A stretch of 64,000 nucleotides of DNA from Candidatus Calditenuaceae archaeon. GTDB lineage: Archaea > Thermoproteota > Nitrososphaeria_A > Caldarchaeales > Calditenuaceae. The position numbers were made by a program, and so were the translations under genes. Below are positions 2,735-31,800 of this stretch, piece after piece. A model generated the notes under the pieces. That model had not been told where the DNA came from and made no database searches. It saw nothing but the letters and a program-made list of their open reading frames with translations. The stretch spans positions 379-64,378 of the forward strand of contig JANXEU010000007.1 of the NCBI GenBank assembly GCA_025058055.1, read 5' to 3'. How positions within the stretch are numbered: position 1 is the first letter of the stretch; each line of letters begins with the position of its first letter.

Positions 2735-2738
2735 AGGA

Positions 2739-3263: not shown

Positions 3264-3322
3264 CGTGATTTTTTATCAGGGTTGATTTAATAGATACGAG
3301 CAATGTAGGTTAGGGTATAGAC

Positions 3323-5437
3323 ATGAGCATGCAGAGTTTCTTCAACCCAAAGAGTGTTGCTATAATCGGCGCCTCACGCGACCCTAATAGACCGGGTAAC
3401 ACCATCCTCAAGAACTTGAAGTCAATGGGATACCGGGGTAGAGTGTTTCCGGTTAATCCGAATCTCACGGAGATTGACGGCCTCCAGTGCTATCCCGACG
3501 TCCTGAGCATAGATGAGGACGTGGAGAACGTTGTGATTTTAGTCTCCGCGGACCGGGCCGTGAGGGTAGCCGAGGAGATAGCTGAGAGGCGCAAGAGACG
3601 TAATGACGTTAAGGCAGTGATTTGCATATCTGGGGGATTCAGCGAGCTCAACACGTCCGAGGGCAGGGAAAGGGAGAGGAGGCTTGTAGAGACCCTTAAG
3701 GGATCTGGTGTGAGACTGATGGGACCCAACTGCGTAGGAGTAATTGACTGCTACAGCAGATTCACCACGAACTTCGATTTGGGTGACTATCCGACCGGCG
3801 GAATATCGCTAGTCTCTCAGAGTGGTGCTTTAGCGACTGCTTTCCTCTTCTGGGCACGACCCTTTAACAGAATTGGTCTCAGTAAGCTTGTCTCGATAGG
3901 GAACATGGCTGACGTGGACATGGTCGAGTGTATCGAGTACTTGGGTAATGATCCAACCACCGACGTGATAGGGGTTTACTTGGAGGGATACCGTGATCCG
4001 CGGAAGCTCTTTGAGACGATGAGGAACGTCTCGAGTGAGAAGCCAATAGTGCTGCTGAAGGCAGGTAGGTCTGAAATCGGGAGCAGTGCGGCACTTAGTC
4101 ACACGGCCTCATTAACGGGCTTGGACGCCCTCTACGACGCCGCCTCGAAGCAGTGTGGAGTCATCAGAGTCAAAGACGTGCTGGAATGGTATGAGACCCT
4201 CCACGCTATAGGGAAGCAACCGATTCCACAAGGCAACAGGGTGGCTGTGCTGACACATATCGGAGGCCCCGGAACGCTTACCGTCGATAGAATAGGGATT
4301 GGCCGAGTGCTCAGAATGGCAGCGATATCGGATCGCGGAAAGTCTGCCATAAGATCGATGGTTGCCCCAACAGCCACAGTATGCAGTCCGGATGGGTACA
4401 TCGACTTGACCGCCTCACATACAGAAGAGCTTCACTACAAAGTACTGAAGGTCTTGTTCGAGGAAGAGGGAGTAGACTCGGTCATTCAAGTGGTGGGACA
4501 CAGCATGTTTCTCTCTCAGACCCTCATGGCTGACAGGATCAGCACTGCCTTCGAAGAGGTGGGGAGAGCTAACAGGAAGACGTTTCTGAACGTCGTAGCC
4601 TTTGACGAGTCACTTCCGGAATTCAAGTTAGGACTGGAAAACAGGGGGTTGCCTGAGTTTCCGACACCCGAGATCGCCGTCACGGTCTTAGAGTACATGT
4701 ATTGGTACGCCAATAAGAGAAAGAGATTGGCATCGGCACCGAGACTTACTCCTTTGCCCCCTGCGCGATCAGAACCACCCGTCCTTGGAAGAGAGGTACT
4801 CCTAGAGAGCGAGGCCTATCCCATCCTGAAGAGATACGGTATCTCTGTGGCGGATTACAGGATTGAGACGAACTACGATGAACTCGAGGACGCGGCCGAG
4901 GAGATCGGATTTCCTGTAGTATTGAAGGCCCAGCACCAAAGGTTGATTCATAAAACAGATGCCGGAGCGGTGGCGCTGAACATCAGCGATGCGAGTGAGT
5001 TACGCGAGCGGTTTCATGAGGTCACAGAGAACGTGATCAGGCACATAGGTGAACCCCCATCGTCTTATTTGGTACAGAAGATGATAAAACCGGGTGCCGA
5101 GGTCATAGTCGGTGCTGTGCATGACGACTCCTTCGGACCTGTTATAAGCTTCGGCAGCGGAGGTGTGTTGGTTGAGCTCCTCAAGGACGTGAGCTCGAGA
5201 TTGATCCCTCTAAGTGAAGACGAGGCTGCGGAGATGATTCAAGAGACCTTCGCTTCAAGGTTGTTATCGGGGTTCAGAGGTGAGGAACCGAAGGACATCA
5301 ACGCCTTGGTAGAACTCTTGTTGAAGGTGAGCGAAATGATGCTTAAGGAGGGTTGGATTAAGGAGCTCGATCTCAACCCGGTCAAACCATTGAGAAAGGG
5401 ATACGCGGTGGTCGATGCGAGGATCGTGCTACGCTGA
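3323..5437 (+). CDS. Acyl-CoA synthetase (ADP-forming), fused alpha/beta subunits (CoA-binding + ATP-grasp; ACD family)
   Basis: 704 aa. The N-terminal CoA-binding Rossmann region reads KSVAIIGASRDPNRPGN. A succinyl-CoA-synthetase-like ligase-CoA domain and a C-terminal ATP-grasp follow (FPVVLKAQ..HKTDAGAVALN). Confidence 0.8.
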   Translation: MSMQSFFNPKSVAIIGASRDPNRPGNTILKNLKSMGYRGRVFPVNPNLTEIDGLQCYPDVLSIDEDVENVVILVSADRAVRVAEEIAERRKRRNDVKAVICISGGFSELNTSEGRERERRLVETLKGSGVRLMGPNCVGVIDCYSRFTTNFDLGDYPTGGISLVSQSGALATAFLFWARPFNRIGLSKLVSIGNMADVDMVECIEYLGNDPTTDVIGVYLEGYRDPRKLFETMRNVSSEKPIVLLKAGRSEIGSSAALSHTASLTGLDALYDAASKQCGVIRVKDVLEWYETLHAIGKQPIPQGNRVAVLTHIGGPGTLTVDRIGIGRVLRMAAISDRGKSAIRSMVAPTATVCSPDGYIDLTASHTEELHYKVLKVLFEEEGVDSVIQVVGHSMFLSQTLMADRISTAFEEVGRANRKTFLNVVAFDESLPEFKLGLENRGLPEFPTPEIAVTVLEYMYWYANKRKRLASAPRLTPLPPARSEPPVLGREVLLESEAYPILKRYGISVADYRIETNYDELEDAAEEIGFPVVLKAQHQRLIHKTDAGAVALNISDASELRERFHEVTENVIRHIGEPPSSYLVQKMIKPGAEVIVGAVHDDSFGPVISFGSGGVLVELLKDVSSRLIPLSEDEAAEMIQETFASRLLSGFRGEEPKDINALVELLLKVSEMMLKEGWIKELDLNPVKPLRKGYAVVDARIVLR

Positions 5438-7057
5438 GACCGCGTGCGGAGGTTGTTCCCTGAGCTTGAACCTCTGAATCTTTCCCGTTGGAGTCTTCGG
5501 CAGGTCGCTTGTGAAGATCACCCACGCAGGTACCTTGTAGCCAACACCTAACCTCATCATGACGTGACGCTTTATCTCCTCTGCGAGTTCGTCGCTGGCT
5601 GAATATCCGGCCTTTAAGACTACGTGTGCCTTGGGTCTGCCTAATCCGTCAGGAGTGTATGCTTGAACAACCGCACATTCAACTACCGCGTGATGTGAGA
5701 GGATGGCCGACTCAACCTCAACCGGCGAGACCCATACTCCACCAGACTTGATGAGGTCGTCTGCTCGCCCCATGTGAACGAAATATCCCTCCTCGTCGGC
5801 CACGTATAGGTCACCGGTGTAGAACCATTCGCCGAGGAAGTGCTCTCTGGTCTTCTCGTATCGCCTCCAGTACATCGCTGCGACGCTTCCACCCTTGACG
5901 AGCATCCTTCCAGGCTCGCCGTAATTGACCTCTTTCATCTGCTCATCGACAAGCTTAACCTCATATCCTGGAACAACGACTCCTGATGTCCCAGGCCTTA
6001 TTTTATCAGGTCTATTCGATACGAAGATATGGCACATCTCTGTCGTCCCGATTCCATCCAAGATGTCCTTCCCAAATGTCTGTTTCCACTTGTGATAAAT
6101 CGGCGCGGGAAGAGCCTCGCCGGCGCTTACGCAGTACCTGACGCTGTCGAGATTGAAGCTCGTAGCACCTCTGGAATCGACGTGAGCCAAGGCTCTACTG
6201 TAAAAGACGGGAACGGAGAAGAAGAGCGTCACACGGAACCTTTCGATCGATTTGAGTACGAACTCTGGATCAGGTGGACCCGACATGAGAACCGTTGAAG
6301 CCCCGAAGTATAGTGGCGCCCAGACCGAGTTTCCTAAGCCGTACGCGAAGAAGATCTTGCTAGTCGAGAAGTTGACATCGTTACGGCTCTCCTTCAGGAC
6401 GTGTCTGTAATAGGACTCGCATGAGTAGAGCGGATCGTGTTGGTAATGAATGACACCCTTCGGCGGCCCCGTAGTCCCAGAACTGTACTGCCAGTAACAG
6501 AAGTCGTCCTTGTGGAGCCTCTCTGGTTGCAGGTTTCCGCTCGCGTTCTTGATGAGTTCCTCGTAACTCAACGCCTTACCGATTCCCGACCCACCCACCG
6601 CTATTACCTTCCTGAGACGTCCGAGCCTGTCTGTTGCGTCTCGCACTTTCTCGAGTAGGTTGGCGTGAACTACCAAAGCCTTAGCGCGGCAGTCTCCTAA
6701 GACGAACTCGTAGAACTGTTTAGACTCAAGCGTCGATAAGAGGACCGGCTGAGCTCCCACCCTTATCGCGCCCAGCAGCACCTCGACGTACTCAATCGAG
6801 TCCGGCAGTATTATCGCGACCCTGTCCTCCATCTCAACTCCAATGTCAAGCAGTACGTTCCCGGCCCTGTTGATCCGCTCGTGCAGTTGAGCGTAAGTTA
6901 CGGACCTCCCGCTCTCGGCCTGTATATACGCAAGACGATCTCCAAGCCCCGATGTCACGTGCCTGTCCACGAGGTACTCGGTCAGGTTGAAGCTTTCTGG
7001 GACTTGAAAGTCCACCGGCTCACCGGTCAAATGTACCATCTTATCTCTCACTCGCAT
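5429..7057 (-). CDS. AMP-forming aromatic acid-CoA ligase (benzoate/4-hydroxybenzoate-CoA ligase family)
   Basis: 542 aa. The YSSGTTGPPKGVIH P-loop, WFYTGDLY motif and terminal PKTPTGKIQR lysine motif are present. An alternative ATG start lies 18 nt downstream (MVHLTGE). Confidence 0.75.
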   Translation of the reverse strand: MRVRDKMVHLTGEPVDFQVPESFNLTEYLVDRHVTSGLGDRLAYIQAESGRSVTYAQLHERINRAGNVLLDIGVEMEDRVAIILPDSIEYVEVLLGAIRVGAQPVLLSTLESKQFYEFVLGDCRAKALVVHANLLEKVRDATDRLGRLRKVIAVGGSGIGKALSYEELIKNASGNLQPERLHKDDFCYWQYSSGTTGPPKGVIHYQHDPLYSCESYYRHVLKESRNDVNFSTSKIFFAYGLGNSVWAPLYFGASTVLMSGPPDPEFVLKSIERFRVTLFFSVPVFYSRALAHVDSRGATSFNLDSVRYCVSAGEALPAPIYHKWKQTFGKDILDGIGTTEMCHIFVSNRPDKIRPGTSGVVVPGYEVKLVDEQMKEVNYGEPGRMLVKGGSVAAMYWRRYEKTREHFLGEWFYTGDLYVADEEGYFVHMGRADDLIKSGGVWVSPVEVESAILSHHAVVECAVVQAYTPDGLGRPKAHVVLKAGYSASDELAEEIKRHVMMRLGVGYKVPAWVIFTSDLPKTPTGKIQRFKLREQPPHAVSA

Positions 7058-13632: not shown

Positions 13633-14322
13633 CTACGGAGCCATTGGGAATTCCTGCACACCTTTCTCCCTGAAGACCTTCTCGAAACCGTAGATCTCGT
13701 ATGAAGTCTTGCCTTGGTCGTAGAGCCTCCTGCTCTCCCTCTCCCTCTCCTCCCTCTGCTTGGCTCGCTGCAAAACTTCCGCCGCTATCTCCCGAGGTAC
13801 AACCACTACACCGTCGTCGTCACCTACTATCACATCACCAGGTTTCACTAGGACTCCGCCGCAGATGACAGGCACGTTGATTGAACCCGGGTGCATCTTC
13901 GAGGACCCAATCGGGGAGACGTGTCGCGCGAACACTGGAAAACCCATCCTCCGGATCTCGGCAACATCTCTAACCGAACCGTCAACGACCACGCCGGCGA
14001 TGCCTTGACGCTTCGCCTGATAGCTCATCAAACCTCCCCACATGACGCCTAGAAGTCCGCTAGCGGCGATCACGATGACGTCACCTGGCTTGGCGAGGGC
14101 CATTGCTCTGTGCACCGTAACGTTGTCTGCGGGGTAACTGTTCACAGTGAGGGCAGGTCCAACCAGCTTAACGTCTTGTGCTATAGGCTTGATCTCAGGG
14201 TCCATAACGCACCTGTATTCCTTACTGATCGACTCGTAAACTGTTGAAGCCCCGAGGTCTTTGAAAGCATCTATTATCTCCCTCGGTAACTTAGGAAAAT
14301 CCCTGTAGACTATCGAGGTCAT
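13633..14322 (-). CDS. RraA-family protein / class II HMG-CHA aldolase-like (4-hydroxy-4-methyl-2-oxoglutarate aldolase family)
   Basis: ~229 aa from ATG 14322 (MTSIVYRDFPKLPREIIDAFKDL...). The ORF track starts at GTG 14343. RraA fold motifs are present (GDVIVIAASG...GGLMS...GIAGVVVDGSVRD..GDVIVGDDDGVVVVP), plus a ~60 aa C-terminal extension as in ProA/LigK-type aldolases. Confidence 0.7.
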   Translation of the reverse strand: MTSIVYRDFPKLPREIIDAFKDLGASTVYESISKEYRCVMDPEIKPIAQDVKLVGPALTVNSYPADNVTVHRAMALAKPGDVIVIAASGLLGVMWGGLMSYQAKRQGIAGVVVDGSVRDVAEIRRMGFPVFARHVSPIGSSKMHPGSINVPVICGGVLVKPGDVIVGDDDGVVVVPREIAAEVLQRAKQREERERESRRLYDQGKTSYEIYGFEKVFREKGVQEFPMAP

Positions 14323-14381
14323 CCTTATCCCGGAGGATGCCACCTGCTAATATATCTGATTCGCGTCTGTTTGAGAACGGT

Positions 14382-18857: not shown

Positions 18858-19090
18858 ATTCGTTTACAGCTCAAGGTATGATAGTGCGTTGAACCATAGA
18901 AACGTCGAGCGATCTCAAGCATGGTTTAATGAGCTTCTGCCTTCGGACATACCTCACGTTCGTGATCGCCCAGAGCCTAGACCCGAGAAGTTTTCTTCTC
19001 CTGTTGATGAATCCGTCGACGTCCCTTACGCGCTATCCAATTTCAGATTGAGAACCTGATTGTGTCATTGCACGCCTATCCGATTCAACA

Positions 19091-19100
19091 CGTTGATATA
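19091..19100 (+). promoter_or_regulatory. TATA box upstream of the SDR gene
   Basis: tgatataaag lies about 28-37 nt upstream of ATG 19128. Confidence 0.4.
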
Positions 19101-19127
19101 AAGCAAGTTAGGTTTGCTCTTAATGGC

Positions 19128-20078
19128 ATGAGGATACTAATCACAGGGACAGGTTTCATAGCGAGCTATGTGGCTAAGAAGCTCCTCGATACGGGCGATG
19201 AGGTCACGCTTTACGGCTATTTCGAGAACCCACAGGCTATGGCTAACGTGATCGGCGACTTGGAGAAGGTCGGGAGAGTTAAGGGCGACGTGCTCGAGAC
19301 AGATCATCTGATTCGTACAGTGAAGGAGCGGGAGGTGGATGCTATAGTACACACCGCTGCAGTACTTATCGCTGGTGCGAGGGAGAACCCCTTCAACGCG
19401 GTTAAGGTTAACGTGCTTGGAACGGCATCGGTTCTAGAGGCCGCTCGAACGACTGATGCCAAGAAGGTGGTGTACACGAGCTCCGGAAACGTCTATTCTA
19501 TGTTGAACCCGTTCATCAAATATCTTCCACCCGAAGGCGGCCTCGTTAAGGAAGACGACCAGACAATACCCGGGAGCGTTTACGGAACCACGAAACTCGC
19601 AAGCGAACTCTTAGGCTTGAACCACTCGCAGATATACGGAATCGACTTCGTGGCCCTCAGGCTTCCAACAGTCTACGGCGGCTGGCTTGGTGCCATGGGA
19701 CTAGCCAGCGTCGTGAGGGATATGTGCAGGGCCGCGCTGAGATCTGAACCTTTGACGGTTGAAGAGTACAAGAGCGAATGGTTGCATGTGAAGGATGCAG
19801 CGCTTGCCTGTCAACTCGCCGTTCACTCTAAGAACCTCAAGAACAGAATATTCAATATCGGTACCGCGAAAATAAACTCACTTCGCGAGGCACTTGACGC
19901 GATCTCCGAAGAGCTGAAAAGACCGATCAACAACATAACGATCAAGGAGGTCCAGCGACCGCTTAGGTATCCGGTGGATATAAGCAGGGCGAGGGAGGAG
20001 TTGGGGTTCGAGCCTCAATTCGACTTCAAGTCCGGTGTGATAGATGTCTTGAAGTGGGTACGTTCCTACTACGTCTGA
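19128..20078 (+). CDS. NAD-dependent epimerase/dehydratase (extended SDR) family oxidoreductase
   Basis: MRILITGTGFIASYVAKKLL Rossmann motif. The ORF track starts at GTG 19062. The ATG at 19128 is preceded by TGATATAAAG about 30 nt upstream. Confidence 0.7.
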   Translation: MRILITGTGFIASYVAKKLLDTGDEVTLYGYFENPQAMANVIGDLEKVGRVKGDVLETDHLIRTVKEREVDAIVHTAAVLIAGARENPFNAVKVNVLGTASVLEAARTTDAKKVVYTSSGNVYSMLNPFIKYLPPEGGLVKEDDQTIPGSVYGTTKLASELLGLNHSQIYGIDFVALRLPTVYGGWLGAMGLASVVRDMCRAALRSEPLTVEEYKSEWLHVKDAALACQLAVHSKNLKNRIFNIGTAKINSLREALDAISEELKRPINNITIKEVQRPLRYPVDISRAREELGFEPQFDFKSGVIDVLKWVRSYYV

Positions 20079-20204: not shown

Positions 20205-20216
20205 TTATATATAAAT
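20205..20216 (+). promoter_or_regulatory. TATA box (tttatatataaa) for ligB-ligA-thioesterase operon
   Basis: A canonical archaeal A/T box lies 28-39 nt upstream of ATG 20244. It is too close to ATG 20226 to serve that start, which supports the downstream start. Confidence 0.55.
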
Positions 20217-20243
20217 GAATGCCATATGAATCTCGAGACGACC

Positions 20244-21062
20244 ATGGTAAAAATTGTGGGTGCATTTGCGACTTCTCACACGCCACAGATCCTCGTCCAG
20301 CCTAAGATCTCAGAAGAGTTCACTAGGCAGCTCCAAGAGGTCCACAACGCCCTTATGCAGGTGGGGAGGAGGATAAAGGAAGCGAACGCAGACACGATAA
20401 TAGTGTTCGGGTCGGATCACATGGAGACGTTCTGGTTGAACAACTACCCGCAACTACTTCTGTTCACGGGGAAGGAGGTTGGTGGGAAGTTCGCTGGGTA
20501 CGAGCTGAGGTTGCCAGCTGACCCGGAACTCTCCAAGGAGTTGCTCTACGGGTTAATTGATTTGGGATTCGACGTCTCCTTCGCCCATGAGCTTGAGCTT
20601 GACCACCCCTATATCTCACCGACGTATTGGGTGCTGAAGGGAGCACAGCACGACTCTTACAGACCGAGAATGATACCATTCCACATCAACAGCAACGTCG
20701 ACCCACGAATCAAACCGAGAAGGGCCTTCGAGCTCGGAAAGGCCATCAGACAGGTCTTGGACGGATCGAAGCTTCAGAACAGAGTTGCCCTGTTAGCGAC
20801 GGGGGGGCTGTCCCACTTCGTCGGCACGCCTTTCTACGGGAAGGTGGATGTCGAGGCTGATAACTTCCTCATCGAGAAGATGAAGGCAGGCAAGGGTTAC
20901 GAGCTGGCCGACCTTACGACGGACTGGCTCGATGAGCATGGCGAGTTCGAGTTCAGAACTTGGCTGACGCTGATAGGGGCCGTGAACAGCGCTCCTGCAG
21001 AGATCATCACTTATCAGAGGGCTTGGCACGCAGGATATTGCGTAGCCTCCTTTAAGGTTTAG
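20244..21062 (+). CDS. ligB: Class III extradiol ring-cleavage dioxygenase catalytic subunit (LigB family; protocatechuate 4,5-dioxygenase beta / gallate dioxygenase-like)
   Basis: MVKIVGAFATSHTPQ... parallels LigB MARVTTGITSSHIP. Fe-binding His motifs are present (GSDHME..., HELELDHPY). The ORF track starts at ATG 20226, but the TATA position favours 20244. Confidence 0.7.
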   Translation: MVKIVGAFATSHTPQILVQPKISEEFTRQLQEVHNALMQVGRRIKEANADTIIVFGSDHMETFWLNNYPQLLLFTGKEVGGKFAGYELRLPADPELSKELLYGLIDLGFDVSFAHELELDHPYISPTYWVLKGAQHDSYRPRMIPFHINSNVDPRIKPRRAFELGKAIRQVLDGSKLQNRVALLATGGLSHFVGTPFYGKVDVEADNFLIEKMKAGKGYELADLTTDWLDEHGEFEFRTWLTLIGAVNSAPAEIITYQRAWHAGYCVASFKV

Positions 21063-21081
21063 ATAAAGAGGTGAGAAGATA

Positions 21082-21384
21082 ATGGTGATCCTATACGGCT
21101 ATCCTGACCCGAAGTACCTGAATTTGTACAAACTCGGCAGAGCCATACACTTGGACCCGCAAGTAAGAGAGAAGTTCAAACTGGACAGAGAAGCGGTGAT
21201 GAACGAGTTCAAGCTCTCTGAGGAAGAAAAAGAGCTCGTCAGATCAGCCGACCCAGTCAAGTTGTTCAAGGCCGGTGTCTCACCCTATACAATCTTCTTC
21301 ATCTGCTGGGAGGGTTACGGATTCATGCAAAAGCCGATTGAAGAACAGATGATGTACAAAAGAATTAAAGAGACACAGCTCTAG
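21082..21384 (+). CDS. ligA: Small subunit of LigAB-type dioxygenase (LigA-like, PF07746-like) - tentative
   Basis: 100 aa ORF 20 nt after the ligB stop with a GGTGA Shine-Dalgarno-like element 9 nt upstream. Its size and position fit a LigA partner. Sequence-level assignment is not certain. Confidence 0.45.
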   Translation: MVILYGYPDPKYLNLYKLGRAIHLDPQVREKFKLDREAVMNEFKLSEEEKELVRSADPVKLFKAGVSPYTIFFICWEGYGFMQKPIEEQMMYKRIKETQL

Positions 21385-21390
21385 AGAATT

Positions 21391-21798
21391 ATGGTTAGAA
21401 GCGTAAAACTGAAGTTCGTGGTGGATTTTTTCGACATCGATGCAAGTGGATGGATAAACGGAGCTGTATACTTCCAATACAACAACAGAATTTTTGAAGA
21501 GTTGCTTAGGAGTAACGGCTACGAATTAAGAGGGCTACTGGAGCGAGGATACGGTTTTCCTCCGGTTCACTACAGAATCGACTACAAGAACGCGGTGATA
21601 TACGGTGACGTTCTTGAAGGTGAACAGGTGGTGACAAGGGTGGGTCGTTCCTCACTTGAGACTGAGTTCAACTTCAGGCGTGCCGATGGTGAATTGATCG
21701 CTCTGGGTACCGTGGTCAGAGTGTTCACAGACATGAGACGCAAGCAATCCGTACCTATTCCTGAAGAGCTGAGGGAGAGACTGTTAAGGGACTTATAG
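21391..21798 (+). CDS. Hotdog-fold acyl-CoA thioesterase (4HBT/YbgC-like)
   Basis: 135 aa. VVDFFDIDASGWINGAVYFQYNN... is the typical 4HBT N-terminal strand-helix. It starts 7 nt after the ligA-like stop. Confidence 0.6.
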   Translation: MVRSVKLKFVVDFFDIDASGWINGAVYFQYNNRIFEELLRSNGYELRGLLERGYGFPPVHYRIDYKNAVIYGDVLEGEQVVTRVGRSSLETEFNFRRADGELIALGTVVRVFTDMRRKQSVPIPEELRERLLRDL

Positions 21799-21845: not shown

Positions 21846-23069
21846 CTACTGCGCAGGTCTGTAGGGCTCTACCGGTGAAGACCTGAATACGACTCTTGGT
21901 ACCCACTTCGCTCCAGGGTTGATCGAGCCGGGGTCTCCTCTCTCGAACTTGTAAAGGATTATTCTGGCCTCTTTGAACTCGCCCCACTCGGTATAGCTCA
22001 ACGGCCACGCGAGCAGCGGGTGATCGAATCTACTGGTCCTGATGTAGTCCGCCACCTTGACCGGATCGACAGATTGAGTCCTCTCGATTGCGTTGGCGAT
22101 GAGCAGTACGTTCAGATACCCGGTCGCTGCGTGGATGTCGAAGAACATGTTGTTAGTACGGTAGAAACGCTCAGCGATTTGTCTGTACTCTGGAGCATCG
22201 AAGTTTATGCACGAGAACTCCAGCAGTCCGGAGTTTATCAGACCGTCTTCTCCGAGGGCTGCCAGCCAGTTATCGACCGGAGTGTAGGAACCTACGAAGA
22301 ACCTAGGCCTCAGACCTATCTCCAGAGCCTGCTTGACGATCGTTGGACCGCCCGGCGGGTGACCCAGCGTAAGCACGACGTCTGGGTTGAGTGGCTGTAT
22401 CCTCCTCAGATAAGAGGTGAAGTCGGTCTCCCTCTGTGGTGCCTCTTCCATCTGATAATTGATGCCGCTGATGGTCTTTATCAGGCGATCTGAAGCGTCT
22501 CTAACCGCGAATCCCCACTCATAGGACGCTATGACGTTAGCGACGTTTCTGAGGTTCTGCTGCCTGATGAACTCAGCTACGGGCTGAGCGTTCATCGGGG
22601 CCGCTGGTAGACACGTTCTGAAGACATACCTGTTGGTTAACGTCAACAGCGTGTGAGACCCAGCCATGTGTAGCAAGAGGGTCACGCGAGCCTTGTTGGC
22701 CTCCGGTGTCAAAGCTGCGGCTATTCCGCTTGAGACTGGGCCGGTTACCGCTACGACCTTGTCCACATCGACGAGTCGTTGAAACGCCGCTACCGCCTCC
22801 TTGGCGTCGTTCTTATCGTCGTAAACCACCAGCTCGACGCGCGCGCCTAGAATGCCACCTCTGTCGTTGATCTCTTTTACCGCCATCTGAGCTCCAGCCA
22901 AGTGTTTCTTTCCCCACGTCGCGAAAGGTCCTGTTAGGGGGTTCAGCGCTCCTATCTTGACTGTCTCTACACCGAGTCTGGGTGCCAACAACGTCGGCAA
23001 CACAAACACTATGGCGATCGCAGCTACAATGACAGCTGCTACGCCCACCACTAAAATTCTCCTATTCAT
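21846..23069 (-). CDS. livK: Leu/Ile/Val-binding protein family ABC substrate-binding protein, membrane-anchored (LivK-like)
   Basis: Type I periplasmic-binding fold (IGALNPLTGPFATWGKKHLAGAQMAVKEIN) with an N-terminal TM anchor. The ORF track starts at GTG 23078; ATG 23069 is preferred. Confidence 0.75.
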   Translation of the reverse strand: MNRRILVVGVAAVIVAAIAIVFVLPTLLAPRLGVETVKIGALNPLTGPFATWGKKHLAGAQMAVKEINDRGGILGARVELVVYDDKNDAKEAVAAFQRLVDVDKVVAVTGPVSSGIAAALTPEANKARVTLLLHMAGSHTLLTLTNRYVFRTCLPAAPMNAQPVAEFIRQQNLRNVANVIASYEWGFAVRDASDRLIKTISGINYQMEEAPQRETDFTSYLRRIQPLNPDVVLTLGHPPGGPTIVKQALEIGLRPRFFVGSYTPVDNWLAALGEDGLINSGLLEFSCINFDAPEYRQIAERFYRTNNMFFDIHAATGYLNVLLIANAIERTQSVDPVKVADYIRTSRFDHPLLAWPLSYTEWGEFKEARIILYKFERGDPGSINPGAKWVPRVVFRSSPVEPYRPAQ

Positions 23070-23148
23070 GCAACCCACCAGATTGTGTTCTAAAATAAAA
23101 ATGCTTTGCAGGAAAGCGTATATGGTCGATGATCAGACCAGAGATCGT

Positions 23149-23856
23149 TTACTTACTCCGCTGCAACTGGAAGTACCTGTATTGTTGACGGGCCTCCCTG
23201 AGCGTCTTGCCGGACCTCACGGACTCGATGATCATCCTCTCCGCCTCTTCGATCTCCTTCGCGTCCCTGAGGACCTCACTCGCCCTCTCTTTGGGAACGC
23301 GGAGAAGCCCTGTGTCGTCGCCAACGATGATGTCGCCCGGCATGATCAGGACTCCGCCTGCCTGTACAGCCACGTTTATCCCATCTATCTGGAGCCGGTC
23401 CTTTCCGGTCCTAGGAATGGTACCTCTCGCGAAGATAGGATATCTGAATCTTAGTATGTTATCGTAATCTCTGAAGACGCCGTCTATCACGGTCCCCGCG
23501 ATCCCCAATTTCATCGCGGTAAAGGTCAGAATGTCTCCCCAACAGGTGTAGCTGGTCACGCCGCCGTTGTCAATCACGATAACGTCACCGGGTTGAGCGA
23601 GATCGAAAAGGTAGTCTCCGATGTCCTCCTTAGTTCCCTGCTCGGCTGGTGAGAGAGGGACGTACCTGACGGTTATGGCAGGGCCTGCGATCCTGACGCC
23701 TTGTACCATCGGACGTATGCCCTCTATTACTCCGCTGATCCTAGTGCGCTCCAATGAGTCAGATATGTTTGGTGTCGAAAGTTCCTTGAAAGCATCGACG
23801 ACGTCCCTTGAAGGTCTGCTCACCTCCTTAACCACAACGGGGTTATAATCACCCAT
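23149..23856 (-). CDS. RraA-family / HMG-CHA aldolase-like protein (paralog 2)
   Basis: MGDYNPVVVKEVSRPSRDVVDAFKEL...GDVIVIDNGG...GIAGTVIDGVFRD...GDIIVGDDTGLLRVP plus a C-terminal extension. The ORF track starts at GTG 23865. Confidence 0.7.
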   Translation of the reverse strand: MGDYNPVVVKEVSRPSRDVVDAFKELSTPNISDSLERTRISGVIEGIRPMVQGVRIAGPAITVRYVPLSPAEQGTKEDIGDYLFDLAQPGDVIVIDNGGVTSYTCWGDILTFTAMKLGIAGTVIDGVFRDYDNILRFRYPIFARGTIPRTGKDRLQIDGINVAVQAGGVLIMPGDIIVGDDTGLLRVPKERASEVLRDAKEIEEAERMIIESVRSGKTLREARQQYRYFQLQRSK

Positions 23857-23962
23857 CTCGTCCACACTCTCAAAGTCAGATTATTAAAAATGCTTGCTGC
23901 TGTTGTCGCAGAGTTAAAAGTTCTTGTCTGAGGGATAAATAGAACCTTGGCGATCCGAACTC

Positions 23963-24637
23963 ATGGTCTCGAGAAAGGTCGTGGACGAATTCGCGAAAAT
24001 TCCCACCTCAAACGTCTCCGACGCCCTCGACAGGTTCAGGATAAAGGGTGGGCTCGAGGACATTTCACCGATCGTGGACAACGTGAGAATCGCAGGTACG
24101 GCGTTCACGGTGAGGTTCGTTCCAGCCAATCAGGTAGAGTTGAAGCCCTGGGTCACGTACATAGACAAGGCCCAGCCTGGCGACGTGGTAGTGATCGATA
24201 ACGGCGGTAGGAAATATTGCACCGTTTGGGGAGGTCTTCTGTCCGCGAGAGCAAAGGACATGGGACTGAGGGGGACGGTGATCGACGGAGTCTGCAGGGA
24301 CATCGACGTTATCAGGGCGATTCGGTACCCGGTCTTCAGCAGAGGTCGGTTCATGATGACCGGTAAGGACAGGGTGCAGCTCGCGGGCCTCAACGAGCCG
24401 ATAAACATCGCAAACGTCCTCATCAAACCTGGTGACGTGATCGTCGCGGACGACAGCGGCGTCGTGGTGGTACCGCAAGAGAAGGCTGAAGAGGTGCTGG
24501 AGGCGGCGCTGGAGATCTACGAGAAAGAATCGAAGATCCTAGAGGAGGTGAAGCGGGGCGTACCGTTATCGGAGGCTAGGGCGAAATACGGTTACGGGGA
24601 ATTGCAGCGCCCCAAAGGCTTAACGCAATCGAAATAG
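23963..24637 (+). CDS. RraA-family / HMG-CHA aldolase-like protein (paralog 3)
   Basis: MVSRKVVDEFAKIPTSNVSDALDRF...GDVVVIDNGG...GLRGTVIDGVCRD...GDVIVADDSGVVVVP. It is divergent from paralog 2 and immediately upstream of the third Mo-hydroxylase. Confidence 0.7.
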   Translation: MVSRKVVDEFAKIPTSNVSDALDRFRIKGGLEDISPIVDNVRIAGTAFTVRFVPANQVELKPWVTYIDKAQPGDVVVIDNGGRKYCTVWGGLLSARAKDMGLRGTVIDGVCRDIDVIRAIRYPVFSRGRFMMTGKDRVQLAGLNEPINIANVLIKPGDVIVADDSGVVVVPQEKAEEVLEAALEIYEKESKILEEVKRGVPLSEARAKYGYGELQRPKGLTQSK

Positions 24638-24664
24638 TGGCCCCTAAATTGGGGGAAGACTACG

Positions 24665-27106
24665 TTGGAGTCCTTACCACCCGAAACGGTTCATAATTTA
24701 TCACGCAAAATAACAACAAGATGGATAGGCAGCCCAGTTAAAAGAAAGGAAGATCTCCGGTTCATAACAGGGAAGGGTCTATTCGTGGACGATTTCAGAT
24801 TCGATAACTGCCTCTATGTCGCATTCGTCAGAGGTAAGGTTGCTCATGCGAAGATAAGACACATAGAGACAGATAAAGCGTCCAGAGTGCGTGGGGTTGT
24901 GAAGGTTCTCACCGGCGAAGAGGTCGCCGATCTCGTCAAACCTTGGCCCCATCTAATTCCAACACCACCTTATTATGGAATCGCTGTTGATAAGATAAGA
25001 TATCAAGGCGAACCTGTGGCTATGGTAATAGCAGAAAGCAAATACGCTGCATGGGACGCGGCAGAGGCGATTGAAGTCTATTGCGAAGGGCTGCGGCCCT
25101 TGGTGACGATCGATGAGGCTTTATCACTCGATGCTCCCCTGATTCACGAGGGGTTCCCACGAAACGTTGCGTGGGAGAAGAAGTTCATTTACGGAGACGT
25201 TGATGGCGACTTCTCAAGGGCCGATAGGGTGGCAAGAGGAAGATACTATTATCACAGGTTCATATCCGCACCTCTGGAACCAACCGCGCTCGCCGCTGTC
25301 TACGATAGACATTCCGGACACCTGACCATCTACGACCAACACCAGCAGGCTCCGATGTATCACGCCAGATACTCCAGGGTGTTAGGCATACCGTCGAACA
25401 GAATTCGCATCAGAGTACCTGACCTAGGAGGAGGATTCGGAAACAAGCAGAGCGTCTACCCATACAGCGCACTAATCGGACTGGCAGCCTTGATAACGGG
25501 AAGACCAGTCAAATTCGTAGCTTCACGATCAGAGGACTTTCAAGCATTGATGCACTCCCCTGATAGATTGGCAAAAGTCGAAGCGGCCTACAAGCTCAAC
25601 GGTGAGGTAATTTCGGTGAGGATGAAGATCTATGACAACTTCGGCGCCTATCTCAGACATCCTGAACCCCATAACGTGACAAGGGCGTTCCCATCGATTG
25701 TCGGTCCTTACAGAATAAAGTCGATCGAGATTGACGCAACAGGGGTGTTCACCAACACCTGCCCGACCGGTCCCAACAGGGGGTACGGACAACAACACGC
25801 TAGCTTCTGCCTTGAGCGCATCATCGACAAGGTGGCTGAGGAGCTCGGATTGGATCCCGTTGAGCTCCGGACGGTCAATTTGATTAGGCGAAACCAGATG
25901 CCCTACGAGACACCCGTTGGATCAGTCTACGACGACGGCGATTACGCAGCAGCGTTGAGTTACGCACTAGAGCTAGCGGAATACGAACAACTCAAGCGAG
26001 AGCGGGAGAAGATGAGAGGAAACGGTGACTTGATGGGGTTGGGCGTTGCCACGATAGTGGAGGGAGGTGCGACCGCCTTCGGGTTCGCTAGGTTGTGGGG
26101 CGGGGATCCGGCCCATGTAGCGGGATATGCCTCCATGGCCGAGTCAGCGTCCGTTAGAGTTCACCCCGACGGGTCAATAACTGTCGCCATGGGAACAGTG
26201 CCACAGGGTCAAGGCCATGAAACCTCTGCTGCACAGATAGTCGCTGATGTTCTGGGCGTCACTCCCGACGACGTGACGGTGATTCCAGGCTTCGATAGCG
26301 ACACGCATCCCTACAGCGCCGCGGGATCAGGCACCTATGCAAGCAGGTTCTCCCAAATAGCAGTAGGCGCGCTGGTCGGAGCCTCACTGCGAATCCGAGA
26401 GAAGGTGTTACACATCGCCGCTCACAAGTTAGAGGCTAACCCTGCAGACTTGGAGATGAGGGACGGCATGATCTACATAAGGGGAAATCAGGAGCGGTTC
26501 ACGACCTTCAGAGAGATAGCTCGAATCGCGCACACCAGATTGGCCGATCTACCTCCGAACACAGAGGCCGGTCTGGATGCGTATTACACCTACCACTTCC
26601 CCTACAGCAAATCGGTCGGTGACGACCTGAGAGGGAACCTCTGTGGGTCATACGCTTTCTTAGCAGGCGTCGCGGCGGTGGTGATCGATAAGGAGACTGG
26701 CGCGGTAGATCTCAGGAGGTTGGTGGTAGTGCACGACTCCGGCAGGGCGTTGAACCCCATGATCCTCGAAGGACAACTGCACGGGGCCGTTGTCAACGGC
26801 ATCGGGGGTGCTCTTCTTGAGGGGTTCGAATATGATCAAGAAGGCAACCTTCTGACTTCAACTTTCGCGGATTATCTGCCTATATCGGCGACCGAGGTAC
26901 CCGAGCTCAGGTTCGGCCACATGGAGACCTCATCTCCTTTCACCCCGTTAGGCGCGAAAGGCAGCGGTGAGGGAGGAACCATATTGGTGCCGGTGCTGAT
27001 TGCCAATGCAATCAACGACGCCCTCAAACCATTAGGAGTCGAGATAACCACGTCGAGACTGACGCCATTCAACGTTTGGCGTTTCATGACCGGAAAAGGC
27101 CTCTGA
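24665..27106 (+). CDS. Molybdopterin-dependent hydroxylase large subunit (XDH/CoxL family), third paralog
   Basis: 813 aa with loop TGPNRGYGQQHASFCLERIID. It lies 27 nt downstream of the RraA-like gene and upstream of two hydrolases. Confidence 0.8.
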   Translation: MESLPPETVHNLSRKITTRWIGSPVKRKEDLRFITGKGLFVDDFRFDNCLYVAFVRGKVAHAKIRHIETDKASRVRGVVKVLTGEEVADLVKPWPHLIPTPPYYGIAVDKIRYQGEPVAMVIAESKYAAWDAAEAIEVYCEGLRPLVTIDEALSLDAPLIHEGFPRNVAWEKKFIYGDVDGDFSRADRVARGRYYYHRFISAPLEPTALAAVYDRHSGHLTIYDQHQQAPMYHARYSRVLGIPSNRIRIRVPDLGGGFGNKQSVYPYSALIGLAALITGRPVKFVASRSEDFQALMHSPDRLAKVEAAYKLNGEVISVRMKIYDNFGAYLRHPEPHNVTRAFPSIVGPYRIKSIEIDATGVFTNTCPTGPNRGYGQQHASFCLERIIDKVAEELGLDPVELRTVNLIRRNQMPYETPVGSVYDDGDYAAALSYALELAEYEQLKREREKMRGNGDLMGLGVATIVEGGATAFGFARLWGGDPAHVAGYASMAESASVRVHPDGSITVAMGTVPQGQGHETSAAQIVADVLGVTPDDVTVIPGFDSDTHPYSAAGSGTYASRFSQIAVGALVGASLRIREKVLHIAAHKLEANPADLEMRDGMIYIRGNQERFTTFREIARIAHTRLADLPPNTEAGLDAYYTYHFPYSKSVGDDLRGNLCGSYAFLAGVAAVVIDKETGAVDLRRLVVVHDSGRALNPMILEGQLHGAVVNGIGGALLEGFEYDQEGNLLTSTFADYLPISATEVPELRFGHMETSSPFTPLGAKGSGEGGTILVPVLIANAINDALKPLGVEITTSRLTPFNVWRFMTGKGL

Positions 27107-27183
27107 TACCTGCTTGCGTCGCTGCGATAGCTCCTAGAAGCTTGCCTTGACTCTCTCGTTCACAATCAGGAAACATTTAATAT

Positions 27184-28119
27184 TTGAACCCAGAATTCAC
27201 TGGCAACGTGAAATTCACCCACCGCATACAGCCTGAGAGAAAGCTGAGGGAGTATGCTTCTCTCCTCGAAGGCGTAGTTGATCTGCACGTACACACTGCG
27301 CCGGACGTACTGACGAGGGCGGTCGACGATTTAGAGTACATCAATTCTCTATCAGAGGTCGGCTACGTTGCCTATCTAGCAAAGAACCACTTCGTAGAGA
27401 CCGCGAGCAGGTCCTACATTTTATCTAAATTCAACGAAAAGGTAAGAGTGTTAGGAGGAGTAGTTCTCAATGAATCTGTCGGAGGGCTGAACCCCTCGGC
27501 TGTCGATAAGGCGTTGTCGATGGGTGCTGCCGAGGTTTGGATGCCTACTTTGGATGCTGAGAACCACATTAGGACGTTCGGAGCTGCACAGCTTCCCACA
27601 ACTCAACGAGTGAGAACGCTCAGTTCGTACAGGGCTCGATCCGCGTGCATAACAGTACTCAACACCGATGGTGAGCTGAAGCCGGAAGTCCAAGAGATCT
27701 TGGAGATGATAGCTGAGGCGGACGCGATTTTGGGCACGGGCCACCTATCTCTGAGGGAGGTCTACAAGGTCGTCGAGGGTGCTAGGAAGGCGGGGGTCAA
27801 GAAGATCTTGGTAACTCACCCGCACTTCAAGGCAACGCGTTTCTACGCCGACGACCAGATCAAATTGGCTGACATGGGAGCGGTCATGGAGCACTGCGCA
27901 GTGGCCGGATACGATCCGAAAGAACTCGCCGAGGACATCAGGAGAATCGGTGTCTCTAGGTGCATCGTCTCGAGTGACGCAGGTCAACCTCACAAGGGAC
28001 ACCCCGTCGATGTTCTCCTCAAGATGATCGAGGAACTGAAGGGCCAAGGAATATCAGACGCTGACATCGAGAGGCTGGTGGTCAAGAACCCGGCCAAGCT
28101 GGTAGAGAACTTCCTCTAG
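27184..28119 (+). CDS. Amidohydrolase-superfamily TIM-barrel metal-dependent hydrolase
   Basis: HxH (VVDLHVHTAPD), later His (ILGTGH, VTHPHF) and a terminal Asp (VSSDAGQPH) in amidohydrolase order. The ORF track starts at TTG 27184, GTG 27205 is also possible, and no ATG lies near the N-terminus. Confidence 0.5.
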   Translation: MNPEFTGNVKFTHRIQPERKLREYASLLEGVVDLHVHTAPDVLTRAVDDLEYINSLSEVGYVAYLAKNHFVETASRSYILSKFNEKVRVLGGVVLNESVGGLNPSAVDKALSMGAAEVWMPTLDAENHIRTFGAAQLPTTQRVRTLSSYRARSACITVLNTDGELKPEVQEILEMIAEADAILGTGHLSLREVYKVVEGARKAGVKKILVTHPHFKATRFYADDQIKLADMGAVMEHCAVAGYDPKELAEDIRRIGVSRCIVSSDAGQPHKGHPVDVLLKMIEELKGQGISDADIERLVVKNPAKLVENFL

Positions 28120-28442
28120 GCCATGAGTCACTCTTCACTCCCCGTCGAGCTGCTCGGTACGATCGAAGAACGCAGGGTTGACGGAATGTCCCGCAATAAG
28201 GTATCGCCCCGAGCGGTCGCGTACGCTGCGTCTCAGGACAACATGAGCTCTCAAACCGTTAAGGGACCTCTTGCCTCGCTTCGGGCAAGATCGCTGTGTG
28301 AACACTCCGGATTCAGGTACCTCTCGGGGCGGGTAACGCAAAGCGAACTGTTGGACACCCCGACCTCAAGGACGATGAGGTCAGAACTCTTTAGACCAAG
28401 GTGTCGTGTGGCACAGCCGGAGGGTGGAGGCAGGAGACAGGG

Positions 28443-29336
28443 ATGACGCTGAACAACGTGAAAATCAACGACGTGCACGTTCACGTGAACCCTTTCTCTA
28501 TGCTCCATAAACCGGCCCTCGAGTTCTTTGCCATGAATCAGGACTTTCGGCAGAACTGGAACCGAATAGAGAGGGACCCCTCATACGTGGTAAAAAGAAT
28601 GGACGAGGAGGGCGTTCAGAGAATCGTTCTCATTAACTACGTGGCTAAGGAGGTTATGGGGTACGACCTCTCGGTTAACGAATACGTCTTTCGATATTGT
28701 AGGGGTTACAGAGATAGATTGATCCCCTTCGGGGGAGTAGAAATTGGGTTAGACCATACCGAGTTCGCTCGGAGGATCGAGGAGGATTACTCGAAGTTCG
28801 AACTCGCAGGGTTAAAGCTACACCCTGTACATCAGCTTGTCTATGCGAACCAATACTTGCCGGAATACGGAGAAGCGCGCGTACGCAACTTAGAGACCCT
28901 CTATCAGTTCTGCAGCGACCACTCTGTCCCCCTCACCGTCCACACAGGATCCTCCATGTTCCCCGGTGCGCGGATCAAGTACGGAGACCCTCTCTACCTC
29001 GATGACGTGCTTGTCGACTTCCCAGAGCTCACCCTGATTATGGCGCATGGCGGTCGGCCCATCTGGATGGAGAAGGCGTTCTTTCTCATGCGCAGGCACA
29101 GGAACCTCTACTTAGACATCTCAGGCATTCCTCCGAACCGGCTCCTCGAGTACTTTCCTAGGATCACGGAGATCGCCGATCGGGTGATCTTCGGAAGCGA
29201 TTGGCCCAGCCCAGGCGTCAAGGGTATGAGAGCCAACGCTCTCGAGATACTGAAGCTACCTATCCCTGAGGACGTGAAGGAGAGGATACTGGGGCTGAAC
29301 TTCGAGCACCTCTTCAGGTCGCTTCGCGTAATATGA
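28443..29336 (+). CDS. Amidohydrolase-2 family hydrolase/hydratase (LigJ/LigI/ACMSD-like)
   Basis: MTLNNVKINDVHVHV..., ...HTGSS..., MAHGGRP..., GSDWP reproduce the PF04909 metal-ligand pattern. The ORF track's start 28401 lies inside the upstream gene region; ATG 28443 is preferred. Confidence 0.7.
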   Translation: MTLNNVKINDVHVHVNPFSMLHKPALEFFAMNQDFRQNWNRIERDPSYVVKRMDEEGVQRIVLINYVAKEVMGYDLSVNEYVFRYCRGYRDRLIPFGGVEIGLDHTEFARRIEEDYSKFELAGLKLHPVHQLVYANQYLPEYGEARVRNLETLYQFCSDHSVPLTVHTGSSMFPGARIKYGDPLYLDDVLVDFPELTLIMAHGGRPIWMEKAFFLMRRHRNLYLDISGIPPNRLLEYFPRITEIADRVIFGSDWPSPGVKGMRANALEILKLPIPEDVKERILGLNFEHLFRSLRVI

Positions 29337-30159: not shown

Positions 30160-30177
30160 CCCCTCGCAAGACGTGAG

Positions 30178-31667: not shown

Positions 31668-31800
31668 CGTCAGCCTAAGCTTCAGTAACGAGACTCCTAC
31701 TGCCGCTGTCAATTCTTACATCACCTCTAACTAGCGTTGACGGTTTCGATATTTATCCATTGAAGGATAACAATGAGATGTAAATGACTTGATGTAAAAG

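Follow-up and report, generated by a model that had tools for sequence, protein, structure and literature searches.

A conserved gene cluster combining RraA-like proteins, a molybdenum-hydroxylase subunit and two amidohydrolase-fold enzymes in a Calditenuis-like archaeon

We analysed a gene cluster that forms the right-hand end of a catabolic island of about 28 kb (1274-29336), within a 64-kb stretch of contig JANXEU010000007.1 from a Candidatus Calditenuaceae archaeon (hereafter the window, meaning the whole stretch). The gene content of the window is archaeal (TATA-binding protein, thermosome and topoisomerase VI-B genes), and the named organisms closest to it are Candidatus Calditenuis fumarioli and Ca. 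Caldarchaeum, in the order Caldarchaeales. The cluster comprises two genes for RraA-like proteins, RraA2 and RraA3, divergently arranged 97-106 nucleotides (nt) apart, and, reading onwards from RraA3, genes for a large subunit of the xanthine dehydrogenase (XDH)/CoxL family of molybdenum hydroxylases (XDH3), which starts after a gap of 27 nt, for a DUF6282 protein and for an Amidohydro_2 protein (Table 1). A preliminary description made from the same DNA had proposed these gene identities and this operon-like layout, with the divergent pair about 100 nt apart and the 27-nt gap before the XDH gene, and both the open reading frames (ORFs) and the Pfam matches agree with it. The best explanation of our results is that the cluster is the core part of a conserved catabolic operon of this Calditenuis-like hot-spring archaeon, located inside an island for taking up and degrading aromatic or heteroaromatic carboxylic acids.

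In support of this, the gene order is kept in at least eight independent Caldarchaeales assemblies, with 65-88% amino acid (aa) identity, so the synteny whose absence would have told against the preliminary description is present in the relatives. The arrangement of binding protein and RraA2 on one strand and RraA3, XDH3, DUF6282 and Amidohydro_2 on the other recurs at loci L175, L003/L010, L004, L005, L006, L090 and L177, of which L175 is the closest relative (82-91% aa identity to the proteins of the window cluster). The intact operon of L175 (GCA_033581515.1) occupies 4254-10894. At L007/L092 the genes are rearranged to RraA3-XDH3-RraA2, with RraA3 abutting XDH3. Between the window and L175 the synonymous substitution rate (dS) is saturated (1.4-2.6), and the ratio of the nonsynonymous to the synonymous rate (dN/dS) is 0.016-0.067 for all cluster genes (RraA2 0.059, RraA3 0.016, XDH3 0.049, Amidohydro_2 0.067). 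Thus, the cluster genes are functional and their order has been maintained; the arrangement is not due to chance.

The invariant parts of the divergent spacer, aligned from five genomes, are two AT boxes and the start regions only. One of the boxes (TAAATA, 23936-23941) lies about 25 nt before the RraA3 start, and the other, of TTATTA type in the minus-strand reading (around 23881-23886), lies about 29 nt before the RraA2 start. We infer that these are back-to-back archaeal TATA boxes, which would direct transcription of RraA2 and the solute-binding protein leftwards, and of RraA3, XDH3, DUF6282, the CoA ligase described below and Amidohydro_2 rightwards. No RNA elements were found in the spacers by the Rfam and tRNA scans, whose sole match was a tRNA-Val at 31800-31872, just right of the island.

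Table 1. Features of the core cluster, followed by those of the rest of the island (positions in the window).
Feature	Position	Strand	Basis and remarks
RraA2	23149-23865 (ORF); 23149..23856 with ATG at 23856 (start used by gene callers in relatives)	-	PF03737 2e-36
Divergent spacer	23857..23962		two AT-rich boxes
RraA3	23963-24637	+	PF03737 2e-41
XDH3, XDH/CoxL-family large subunit	24665-27106	+	Ald_Xan_dh_C, MoCoBD_1, MoCoBD_2, E 1e-23 to 1e-75
DUF6282 protein	27184/27208-28119	+	PF19799 2.5e-68; weak PTE match too
CoA-ligase 3' remnant (pseudogene)	28153..28443	+	tblastn and local alignment to L175 ligase
Amidohydro_2 protein	28443-29336	+	PF04909 3.3e-33
HpaB-type hydroxylase, flavin reductase, ADP-forming acyl-CoA synthetase	1274..5437	+	Pfam; left end of island; same genes in L003, L005
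AMP-forming CoA ligase paralogue	5429..7057	-	Pfam; head-to-head with XDH1-XDH2
XDH1 large subunit	7283-9535		Pfam
XDH2 large subunit	9569-11992		Pfam
RraA1, LigK/GalC-like	13633..14343	-	PF03737 2e-46; inside Liv-type ABC operon
SDR/epimerase-family oxidoreductase	19062..20078	+	Pfam
LigB and LigA extradiol dioxygenase subunits, 4HBT-type thioesterase	20226..21798	+	Pfam; thioesterase 21391-21798
Liv-type solute-binding protein (Peripla_BP_6)	21846..23078	-	Pfam 1.4e-59; downstream of RraA2, same strand

The two hydrolase genes are not contiguous. Every close relative (L175, L003, L005, L090, L177) carries an intact AMP-forming ligase of 525-531 aa between DUF6282 and Amidohydro_2, and the same position in the window is a spacer of 323 nt, whose sole ORF (28123-28446) has no Pfam match. 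Comparison of this spacer with the L175 ligase by tblastn recovered residues 434-513 (E 6.6e-8), and a local alignment ran in frame over residues 433-525, up to the last residue of the ligase, with a score of 90 against 29 +/- 4 for shuffled sequences, none of 2000 of which reached that value. Note that the remnant is clear only with L175; the search with the more distant ligases of L003 and L005 was not significant. Judged by these alignments, the spacer holds the decayed 3' end of a gene for an AMP-forming coenzyme A (CoA) ligase, and so the operon in this genome is a derived form, with about 430 ligase codons lost. The preliminary description had placed two hydrolases after the XDH gene; their order and orientation stand, the implied contiguity does not. 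A paralogue with 36% identity to the lost ligase (tblastn 1.4e-105) remains near the left end of the island, and ligases of a single archaeal family, 36-58% identical to one another, occur with XDH2/3-type genes in six different arrangements.

XDH3 contains domains PF01315, PF02738 and PF20256 (the hammerhead and two molybdenum cofactor (MoCo)-binding domains), and its motifs 'GGGFGNK' and, at the C-terminus, 'GAKGSGEGG' (with the catalytic Glu) align with the same motifs in PDB entries 8UEM and 1N5W. Its PDB matches are led by the CoxL-type 8UEM (3e-141), followed by 1T3Q (1e-113), 7DQX (3e-98), 4ZOH (2e-93) and 3HRD (1e-46). A function as CO dehydrogenase was ruled out, as the Cu-site loop AYxCSFR is absent ('GPNRG--YGQQ' versus 'VAYACSFR' in 8UEM); the score against TIGR02416 is 510, with a cut-off of 991. 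The top NCBIfam model of XDH3 is glyceraldehyde dehydrogenase subunit alpha, at 537 bits (cut-off 790), against which XDH1 scores 666 bits.

The best homologue of XDH3 from a cultured organism is the large subunit of the pHTA426 cluster of Geobacillus kaustophilus (40% identity, 4e-176), in which the genes are ordered XdhC-MocA-XDH_L-CoxG-XDH_M-2Fe2S-AMP ligase-enoyl-CoA hydratase. G. kaustophilus is among the hmfABCDE-type furoate degraders, and the proximity of a ligase, a molybdenum dehydrogenase and a thioesterase predicts the furoyl-CoA pathway (PMC3223595, Wierckx et al.). The same paper takes close homology to HmfA, with genes for a CoA ligase and a CoA-thioester hydrolase nearby, as the mark of a 2-furoyl-CoA dehydrogenase. 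Set against this, XDH3 shows the 40% identity to the hmf-like G. kaustophilus subunit, the ligase is present in the relatives and as a remnant here, and a 4HBT thioesterase lies in the island. Many XDH3 homologues also carry the JGI label 2-furoyl-CoA dehydrogenase large subunit. Thus, the ligase family beside XDH2/3-type genes and the hmf-like context of the nearest homologue point to an acyl-CoA substrate for XDH3, and not to oxalomesaconate or 2-pyrone-4,6-dicarboxylate (PDC), which the preliminary description had listed as candidate substrates. Literature searches for furoyl-CoA dehydrogenase in archaea and for oxalomesaconate in archaea returned nothing relevant.

The RraA-like proteins fall into three orthogroups in an alignment of 13 sequences. 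RraA1 scores 202 bits against the NCBIfam equivalog model NF006731 for 4-carboxy-4-hydroxy-2-oxoadipate (CHA) aldolase, passing its cut-off of 179 bits, and 168.7 against TIGR02798, below the cut-off of 304.5 bits; its best PDB match is 3NOJ (3e-41). We class it as of CHA aldolase/oxaloacetate decarboxylase type. RraA2 (94 and 87.2 bits) and RraA3 (114.2 and 104.5 bits) are below both cut-offs and have 3K4I as their best PDB match (4e-47 and 2.6e-50, respectively, versus 4e-18 and 1.4e-18 for 3NOJ). LigK orthology of RraA2 and RraA3 was ruled out on these grounds, the LigK-like paralogue being RraA1, about 10 kb upstream. The Arg-Asp pair, which we take to be the catalytic Arg123 and the metal-binding Asp124 in 3NOJ numbering, is invariant in all 13 aligned sequences, 'VCRD' of RraA3 aligning with 'GVRD' of 3NOJ. 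The position equivalent to Asp102 of 3NOJ, presumably a second-shell residue, is Gly in the RraA3 and RraA1 types ('WGGLL') and Asp only in the RraA2 type ('WGDIL').

How general the association of RraA with XDH is can be seen from the 80 nearest loci of a metagenome scan with the RraA2/3 alignment. An XDH gene is present at four of them, all from the Calditenuis lineage (at least 81% identity), and the other 76 (45-57% identity) have neither XDH nor DUF6282 and nearly all carry two or three adjacent RraA paralogues. Recurrent neighbours at these 76 bacterial loci are GntR, Tct/TAXI transporters, AcnX, PrpD, a FAD_binding_2 flavoprotein, DHO_dh+Fer4 and a 481-aa SDH_alpha-like protein. Therefore, the coupling of an RraA-fold aldolase to a molybdenum hydroxylase, to which the preliminary description had drawn attention, is real in the sense of a conserved adjacency, but it is lineage-specific; the general theme is paired RraA paralogues beside a redox enzyme. 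No paper linking RraA-like proteins with XDH-family enzymes was found, in agreement with the earlier statement that no described pathway couples the two, and a search for heteromeric RraA in the literature gave nothing relevant. The bacterial operons themselves take the form GntR - DHO_dh+Fer4 - SDH_alpha-like (481 aa) - RraA (two or three copies) - FAD_binding_2 - TAXI/TRAP, or a form with AcnX, PrpD and TctABC (for example L114, L103 and L133; L094-L169), and have the appearance of an organic-acid system that is widespread but uncharacterised and in which the RraA proteins possibly form a heteromeric lyase.

The DUF6282 protein matches Pfam PF19799 with 230 bits (gathering score 26.8) and is an amidohydrolase-superfamily TIM barrel with invariant H29, K59, H179, H204, E228 and D257. 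Its profile matches the PHP/PTE family only, and weakly (7.7e-4); the PTE/PHP group includes lactonases. Relatives were confirmed at 594 sites in the species-genome collection, and no mention of DUF6282 was found in the literature. The genomic context was sampled in 76 genomes outside Caldarchaeales, 63 of which had at least 2 kb of downstream sequence. An RraA1-like gene lies just downstream of DUF6282 in 26 of these 63, a PIG-L gene stands in between in 21, and both occur in 19; in addition, 11 of the RraA loci encode a LigB-type dioxygenase of 388 aa. PIG-L is the family to which GalB, the oxalomesaconate hydratase of the gallate pathway, belongs. The association is at its most compact in the Aigarchaeota metagenome-assembled genome (MAG) L176 (10001-12347), where DUF6282 is followed only by a convergent pair of RraA3-type and RraA1-type genes, amid unrelated genes. 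From this genomic context it follows that DUF6282 acts one or two steps before an RraA-type aldolase, and the most economical guess at its role is lactone opening (of PDC type) or hydration. Probably DUF6282 and the RraA proteins also serve the ring-fission product of the aromatic-acid island.

The bacterial module, which many species possess, has the order DUF6282 - PIG-L (GalB-like) - RraA (LigK-like) - LigB (388 aa) - transporter - DUF1932 dehydrogenase (L015-L089; for example L043 9989-13201, L078 9902-15752 and L061 9998-13488). In two strict anaerobes, Clostridium asparagiforme and Enterocloster lavalensis, the DUF6282 module lacks the LigB dioxygenase.

The Amidohydro_2 protein has the fold of metal-dependent hydrolases, hydratases or decarboxylases, and its metal-ligand pattern HxH...H...H...D, pointed out in the preliminary description, is invariant in an alignment of 25 sequences (H12, H14, H167, H202, D253). 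Among proteins of solved structure it is closest to the uncharacterised BB4693 (3IRS; 1e-16 with the single sequence, 5e-22 with the profile), and more distant profile matches are ACMSD and aromatic-acid decarboxylases (about 1e-4), LigY, LigW, LigJ (0.038) and LigI (0.18). The last two values ruled out orthology to LigJ or LigI. Of the preliminary reading of the cluster in LigK and LigJ terms, the LigK part applies to RraA1 and not to RraA2 and RraA3, and the LigJ part does not apply to this hydrolase. A TatD (DNase) or housekeeping assignment, named in the same description as the outcome that would tell against it, was ruled out for both hydrolases by their profile matches (PHP/PTE for DUF6282 and 3IRS for Amidohydro_2). 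Homologues of Amidohydro_2 with 45-50% identity are widespread in other archaea and in bacteria, and its link with DUF6282 is specific to Caldarchaeales.

The cluster is probably one section of a pathway degrading aromatic or furan-type acids. Our best reading, to which we give a probability of roughly 0.45, is that in this aromatic-acid island with LigAB and HpaBC a ligase activates the acid, a molybdenum enzyme hydroxylates the acyl-CoA, the two hydrolases open a lactone and carry out a hydration, and RraA proteins perform an aldol cleavage. The acid would be imported by the Liv-type ABC system and converted to its CoA thioester by the AMP-forming ligase, of which this genome keeps the 3' remnant in the operon and a paralogue at 5429-7057. 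XDH3 would then hydroxylate the thioester with water, like the molybdenum-dependent furoyl-CoA dehydrogenase of the Trudgill pathway, with the Fe-S and flavin adenine dinucleotide (FAD) subunits encoded elsewhere. DUF6282 may open either the resulting tautomer, which would be of lactone type, or a pyrone produced when LigAB cleaves the ring (PDC, for example), and Amidohydro_2 would process the product further, for example by hydration. Finally, the 4HBT thioesterase or the ADP-forming synthetase would release CoA, and the RraA-fold class II aldolases would split the resulting 4-hydroxy-2-oxo acid. The analysis itself establishes the gene identities, the conserved synteny, the family contexts, the remnant of the ligase and the purifying selection, whereas the substrates and the order of these reactions are inferred.

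Several observations weigh against this reading. XDH3 reaches no NCBIfam equivalog threshold and is just 37-40% identical to the hmf-type bacterial enzymes. A CoxS query and Pfam scans of the ORFs found no gene for an Fe-S (Fer2_2) or FAD (FAD_binding_5) subunit in the 64-kb window, so that none of its three XDH large subunits has such a partner gene within 64 kb, and none was found at the loci of L003, L005, L007, L090 and L092 either. In favour of the reading, multiple copies of CoxM and CoxS have been described in Caldarchaeales MAGs (PMC10547907). The ligase is lost in this genome, yet XDH3 is under purifying selection, and therefore XDH3 uses another ligase or needs no CoA ester. A furoate-type route ends in 2-oxoglutarate and so could do without an aldolase. 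The presence of HpaB and LigAB indicates an aromatic route that depends on O2, and this may be a separate pathway merely co-located with the cluster. Bacterial DUF6282 shows no association with XDH or ligase, DUF6282 and an RraA pair occur without XDH in L176, L012 and L013, and the Amidohydro_2 homologues shared no neighbours over three contexts (Thermoplasmata, Bipolaricaulota and a 2.3-Mb contig).

The main alternative, doubtful but the one that survives best, is that XDH3 is an aldehyde oxidoreductase in a meta-cleavage pathway. It would act either on the semialdehyde formed by LigAB, replacing LigC/HpaE, or on an aldehyde released by an RraA aldolase, in parallel to the archaeal non-phosphorylative Entner-Doudoroff pair of 2-keto-3-deoxygluconate (KDG) aldolase and molybdenum glyceraldehyde oxidoreductase; in that case LigI and LigJ would have their analogues in DUF6282 and Amidohydro_2. 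Despite the presence of LigAB, there is no Aldedh-family or LigC-type gene among the scanned ORFs of at least 150 aa of the window, and this alternative would account for it. The glyceraldehyde dehydrogenase model at the top of the NCBIfam matches of XDH3, although reached below cut-off, and the match to the Sulfolobus oxidoreductase 4ZOH point the same way, but it is XDH1, and not XDH3, that lies nearest to that model. XDH3 has stayed functional after the loss of the ligase, and it remains adjacent to RraA3 even at loci that no longer have DUF6282 and the ligase close by (L007/L092, L091); however, RraA-XDH linkage is absent outside one lineage, and the closest bacterial XDH3 homologues lie beside AMP ligases and CoA-ester enzymes, not beside aldolases or dioxygenases. 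There is also a loose complementarity between the SDR and XDH genes, SDR occurring without XDH by DUF6282 in L012 and L013 and XDH without SDR in L003, L005 and L090, but the window, L175 and L009 carry both together.

It is distinctly unlikely that the substrate is an N-heterocyclic carboxylate of the nicotinate, picolinate or dipicolinate type, in which case XDH3 would hydroxylate the free heterocycle at a position adjacent to its nitrogen, the amidohydrolase-fold enzymes would open a lactam or amide or decarboxylate (as enamidase and PicC do) and the RraA proteins would cleave an oxo-acid. XDH3 is indeed related to quinoline 2-oxidoreductase (1T3Q), 6-hydroxypseudooxynicotine dehydrogenase (7DQX) and nicotinate dehydrogenase (3HRD), but the CoxL-type 8UEM outscores every N-heterocycle hydroxylase. 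Its paralogue XDH2 is paired, here and in L007, with an isochorismatase-family hydrolase, a family that includes the maleamate amidohydrolase NicF; the weak profile matches of Amidohydro_2 to ACMSD and the aromatic-acid decarboxylases, and the RidA gene of an analogous Rhodococcus cluster (see below), would also be explained. Left unexplained, however, would be the conserved ligase, the thioesterase and the ADP-forming synthetase, and in bacteria DUF6282 has a gallate-like context in which nitrogen plays no part.

Very improbable is mere co-location without a shared pathway, RraA2 and RraA3 being protein regulators (like E. coli RraA on RNase E) or unrelated lyases and XDH3 a stand-alone CoxL-like paralogue: the restriction of RraA-XDH adjacency to one lineage, the many CoxL copies in Caldarchaeales and the erosion evident from the ligase loss would fit, but the order has been kept despite saturated synonymous divergence, the gaps are short (27-40 nt, and abutting in L007), the same gene set recurs in shuffled order in L009, DUF6282 and RraA are linked in archaea and bacteria alike, the catalytic Arg-Asp pair does not vary and RNase E is a bacterial protein.

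The CoA-ester reading that we prefer can be compared with several known systems. CoA-dependent aromatic hydroxylation modules (salicylyl-CoA 5-hydroxylase, 4-hydroxybenzoate-to-gentisate) combine a ligase, a hydroxylase and a 4HBT-type thioesterase in one locus, with flavin or Rieske hydroxylases. The island has the same three-part logic, the candidate hydroxylase being a molybdenum enzyme instead. In the furoyl-CoA (Trudgill/hmfABCDE) pathway of Cupriavidus basilensis HMF14 and the hmf-like pHTA426 cluster of G. kaustophilus, the source of the best cultured XDH3 homologue, a single locus likewise brings together an AMP-forming ligase, an XDH-family molybdenum dehydrogenase and a CoA-thioester hydrolase. 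The pathway also needs a lactone opening, a hydrolysis step with no assigned enzyme (PMC3223595). Unlike these systems, archaeal XDH3 has no adjacent genes for Fe-S and FAD subunits, XdhC or CoxG, the thioesterase is of 4HBT type and not the enoyl-CoA-hydratase-type HmfE, the ligase here is a pseudogene, the identity is 37-40%, and the locus adds two amidohydrolase-fold genes, two RraA genes, LigAB and HpaBC.

The protocatechuate 4,5-cleavage (LigABCIUJK) and gallate (GalABCD) pathways share with the island LigB/LigA, a CHA-type aldolase (RraA1) and metal-dependent enzymes of hydrolase/hydratase fold, and bacterial DUF6282 stands directly beside GalB-like (PIG-L), GalC-like (RraA) and GalA-like (LigB) genes. 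In contrast, no LigC, LigI, LigU/GalD, LigJ or GalB orthologue was found in the window, the archaeal Amidohydro_2 belongs to the 3IRS clade, RraA2 and RraA3 are 3K4I-like, and a molybdenum enzyme and CoA-ester enzymes are present. To 3K4I and the bacterial tandem RraA operons the archaeal pair is linked by its PDB matches, and in bacteria the genes nearly always come as neighbouring paralogues, two or three in number, with redox enzymes and dehydratases next to them; the archaeal pair is divergent and its redox neighbour belongs to the XDH family, whereas the bacterial ones carry FAD_binding_2 or DHO_dh/Fer4. On a Rhodococcus koreensis plasmid (L173; NZ_CP070611.1, 82834-90657) a CHA aldolase, a LigB-like 'hypothetical' protein, two RraA proteins, a FAD oxidoreductase, an acyl-CoA synthetase, RidA and an amidohydrolase are encoded together, which parallels the logic of the archaeal operon, except that a flavoprotein takes the place of the molybdenum enzyme.

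In the same archaeal lineage, the main text of Beam et al. 2016 (PMC4681859) describes an operon with LigA and LigB in Calditenuis aerorheumensis that is highly transcribed in situ, acts on an unknown aromatic substrate and is present in other Aigarchaeota. RraA does not appear in that main text, nor are XDH, DUF6282 and Amidohydro_2 described there as operon members. According to the same text the LigAB operon ranks among the loci with the highest transcription in situ, and the cluster studied here bears on the diet of these aerobic hot-spring Aigarchaeota.

The cluster varies a known catabolic logic; it is not a new kind of system or a new principle. Its value lies in the concrete, testable hypotheses that the contexts give for three protein groups without assigned function, namely DUF6282, the 3K4I-like RraA proteins and the 3IRS-like Amidohydro_2 proteins: that DUF6282 is a lactonase or hydratase of pyrone or furanone carboxylates next to GalB/GalC/GalA-type genes, that paired RraA paralogues form a heteromeric lyase, and that an XDH-family enzyme acts on CoA esters in archaea. 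A hybrid route uniting them, in which thermophilic Caldarchaeales convert a (hetero)aromatic carboxylic acid to its CoA ester, an XDH-family molybdenum enzyme hydroxylates this with water, DUF6282 opens the ring by hydrolysis and a heteromeric RraA2/RraA3 lyase, functionally tied to the molybdenum enzyme, splits the product, is in our view unlikely in its entirety. If it were true, DUF6282 would be the missing lactonase of Trudgill-type pathways and an analogue of LigI in the bacterial gallate clusters, and DUF6282, the 3K4I-like RraA subgroup and the 3IRS-like Amidohydro_2 clade would gain their first functions.

The island as a whole begins on the left with the HpaB hydroxylase, the flavin reductase and the ADP-forming acyl-CoA synthetase, followed by the minus-strand AMP ligase, XDH1, XDH2 and the isochorismatase-family hydrolase. 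It continues with the Liv-type ABC operon containing RraA1, an acetyl-CoA-synthetase-like ligase, the SDR, LigB, LigA and the 4HBT thioesterase, and then the solute-binding protein, RraA2, RraA3, XDH3, DUF6282 and Amidohydro_2. Between the minus-strand AMP ligase and LigB the window is about 13 kb longer (7058-20225) than Ca. Calditenuis fumarioli (L003) and L005, and this additional stretch holds XDH1, XDH2, the isochorismatase, the ABC operon with RraA1, the acetyl-CoA-synthetase-like ligase and the SDR. The solute-binding protein gene adjoins RraA2 in all Calditenuis-type relatives, and the LigB/LigA/4HBT block stays beside this unit in L175, L003 and L005. Compared with LigB of the bacterial DUF6282 clusters, the window LigB reaches 146 bits. 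In Caldarchaeum-type relatives (L011, L012, L013, L009) the SDR/epimerase gene adjoins DUF6282 and Amidohydro_2.

Within the ABC operon (12647-16737, minus strand) RraA1 lies between two permease genes, and the RraA1-permease adjacency is also present in L007 and L001. XDH2 is followed by the convergent isochorismatase-family gene (9569-12631), and the conservation of this pair in L007/L092 suggests a separate molybdenum-hydroxylase/amidase module, possibly for an N-heterocycle. The right-hand neighbours of the cluster, an AN1 zinc finger fused to an M50-type peptidase domain and then a DtxR-family repressor (29392-30696), are kept in L175, L005 and L177. The G+C content is 0.49-0.57 over the catabolic island (1-32000) versus 0.58-0.62 in the 52-60 kb stretch with topoisomerase VI-B and NAD kinase. 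Elsewhere in the window there are MoCo-related genes (37914-38444, 40089-40730 and 59833-60438) and a full-length homologue of the selenium-binding protein SBP56 (49728-51119, minus strand; Pfam E 4e-185).

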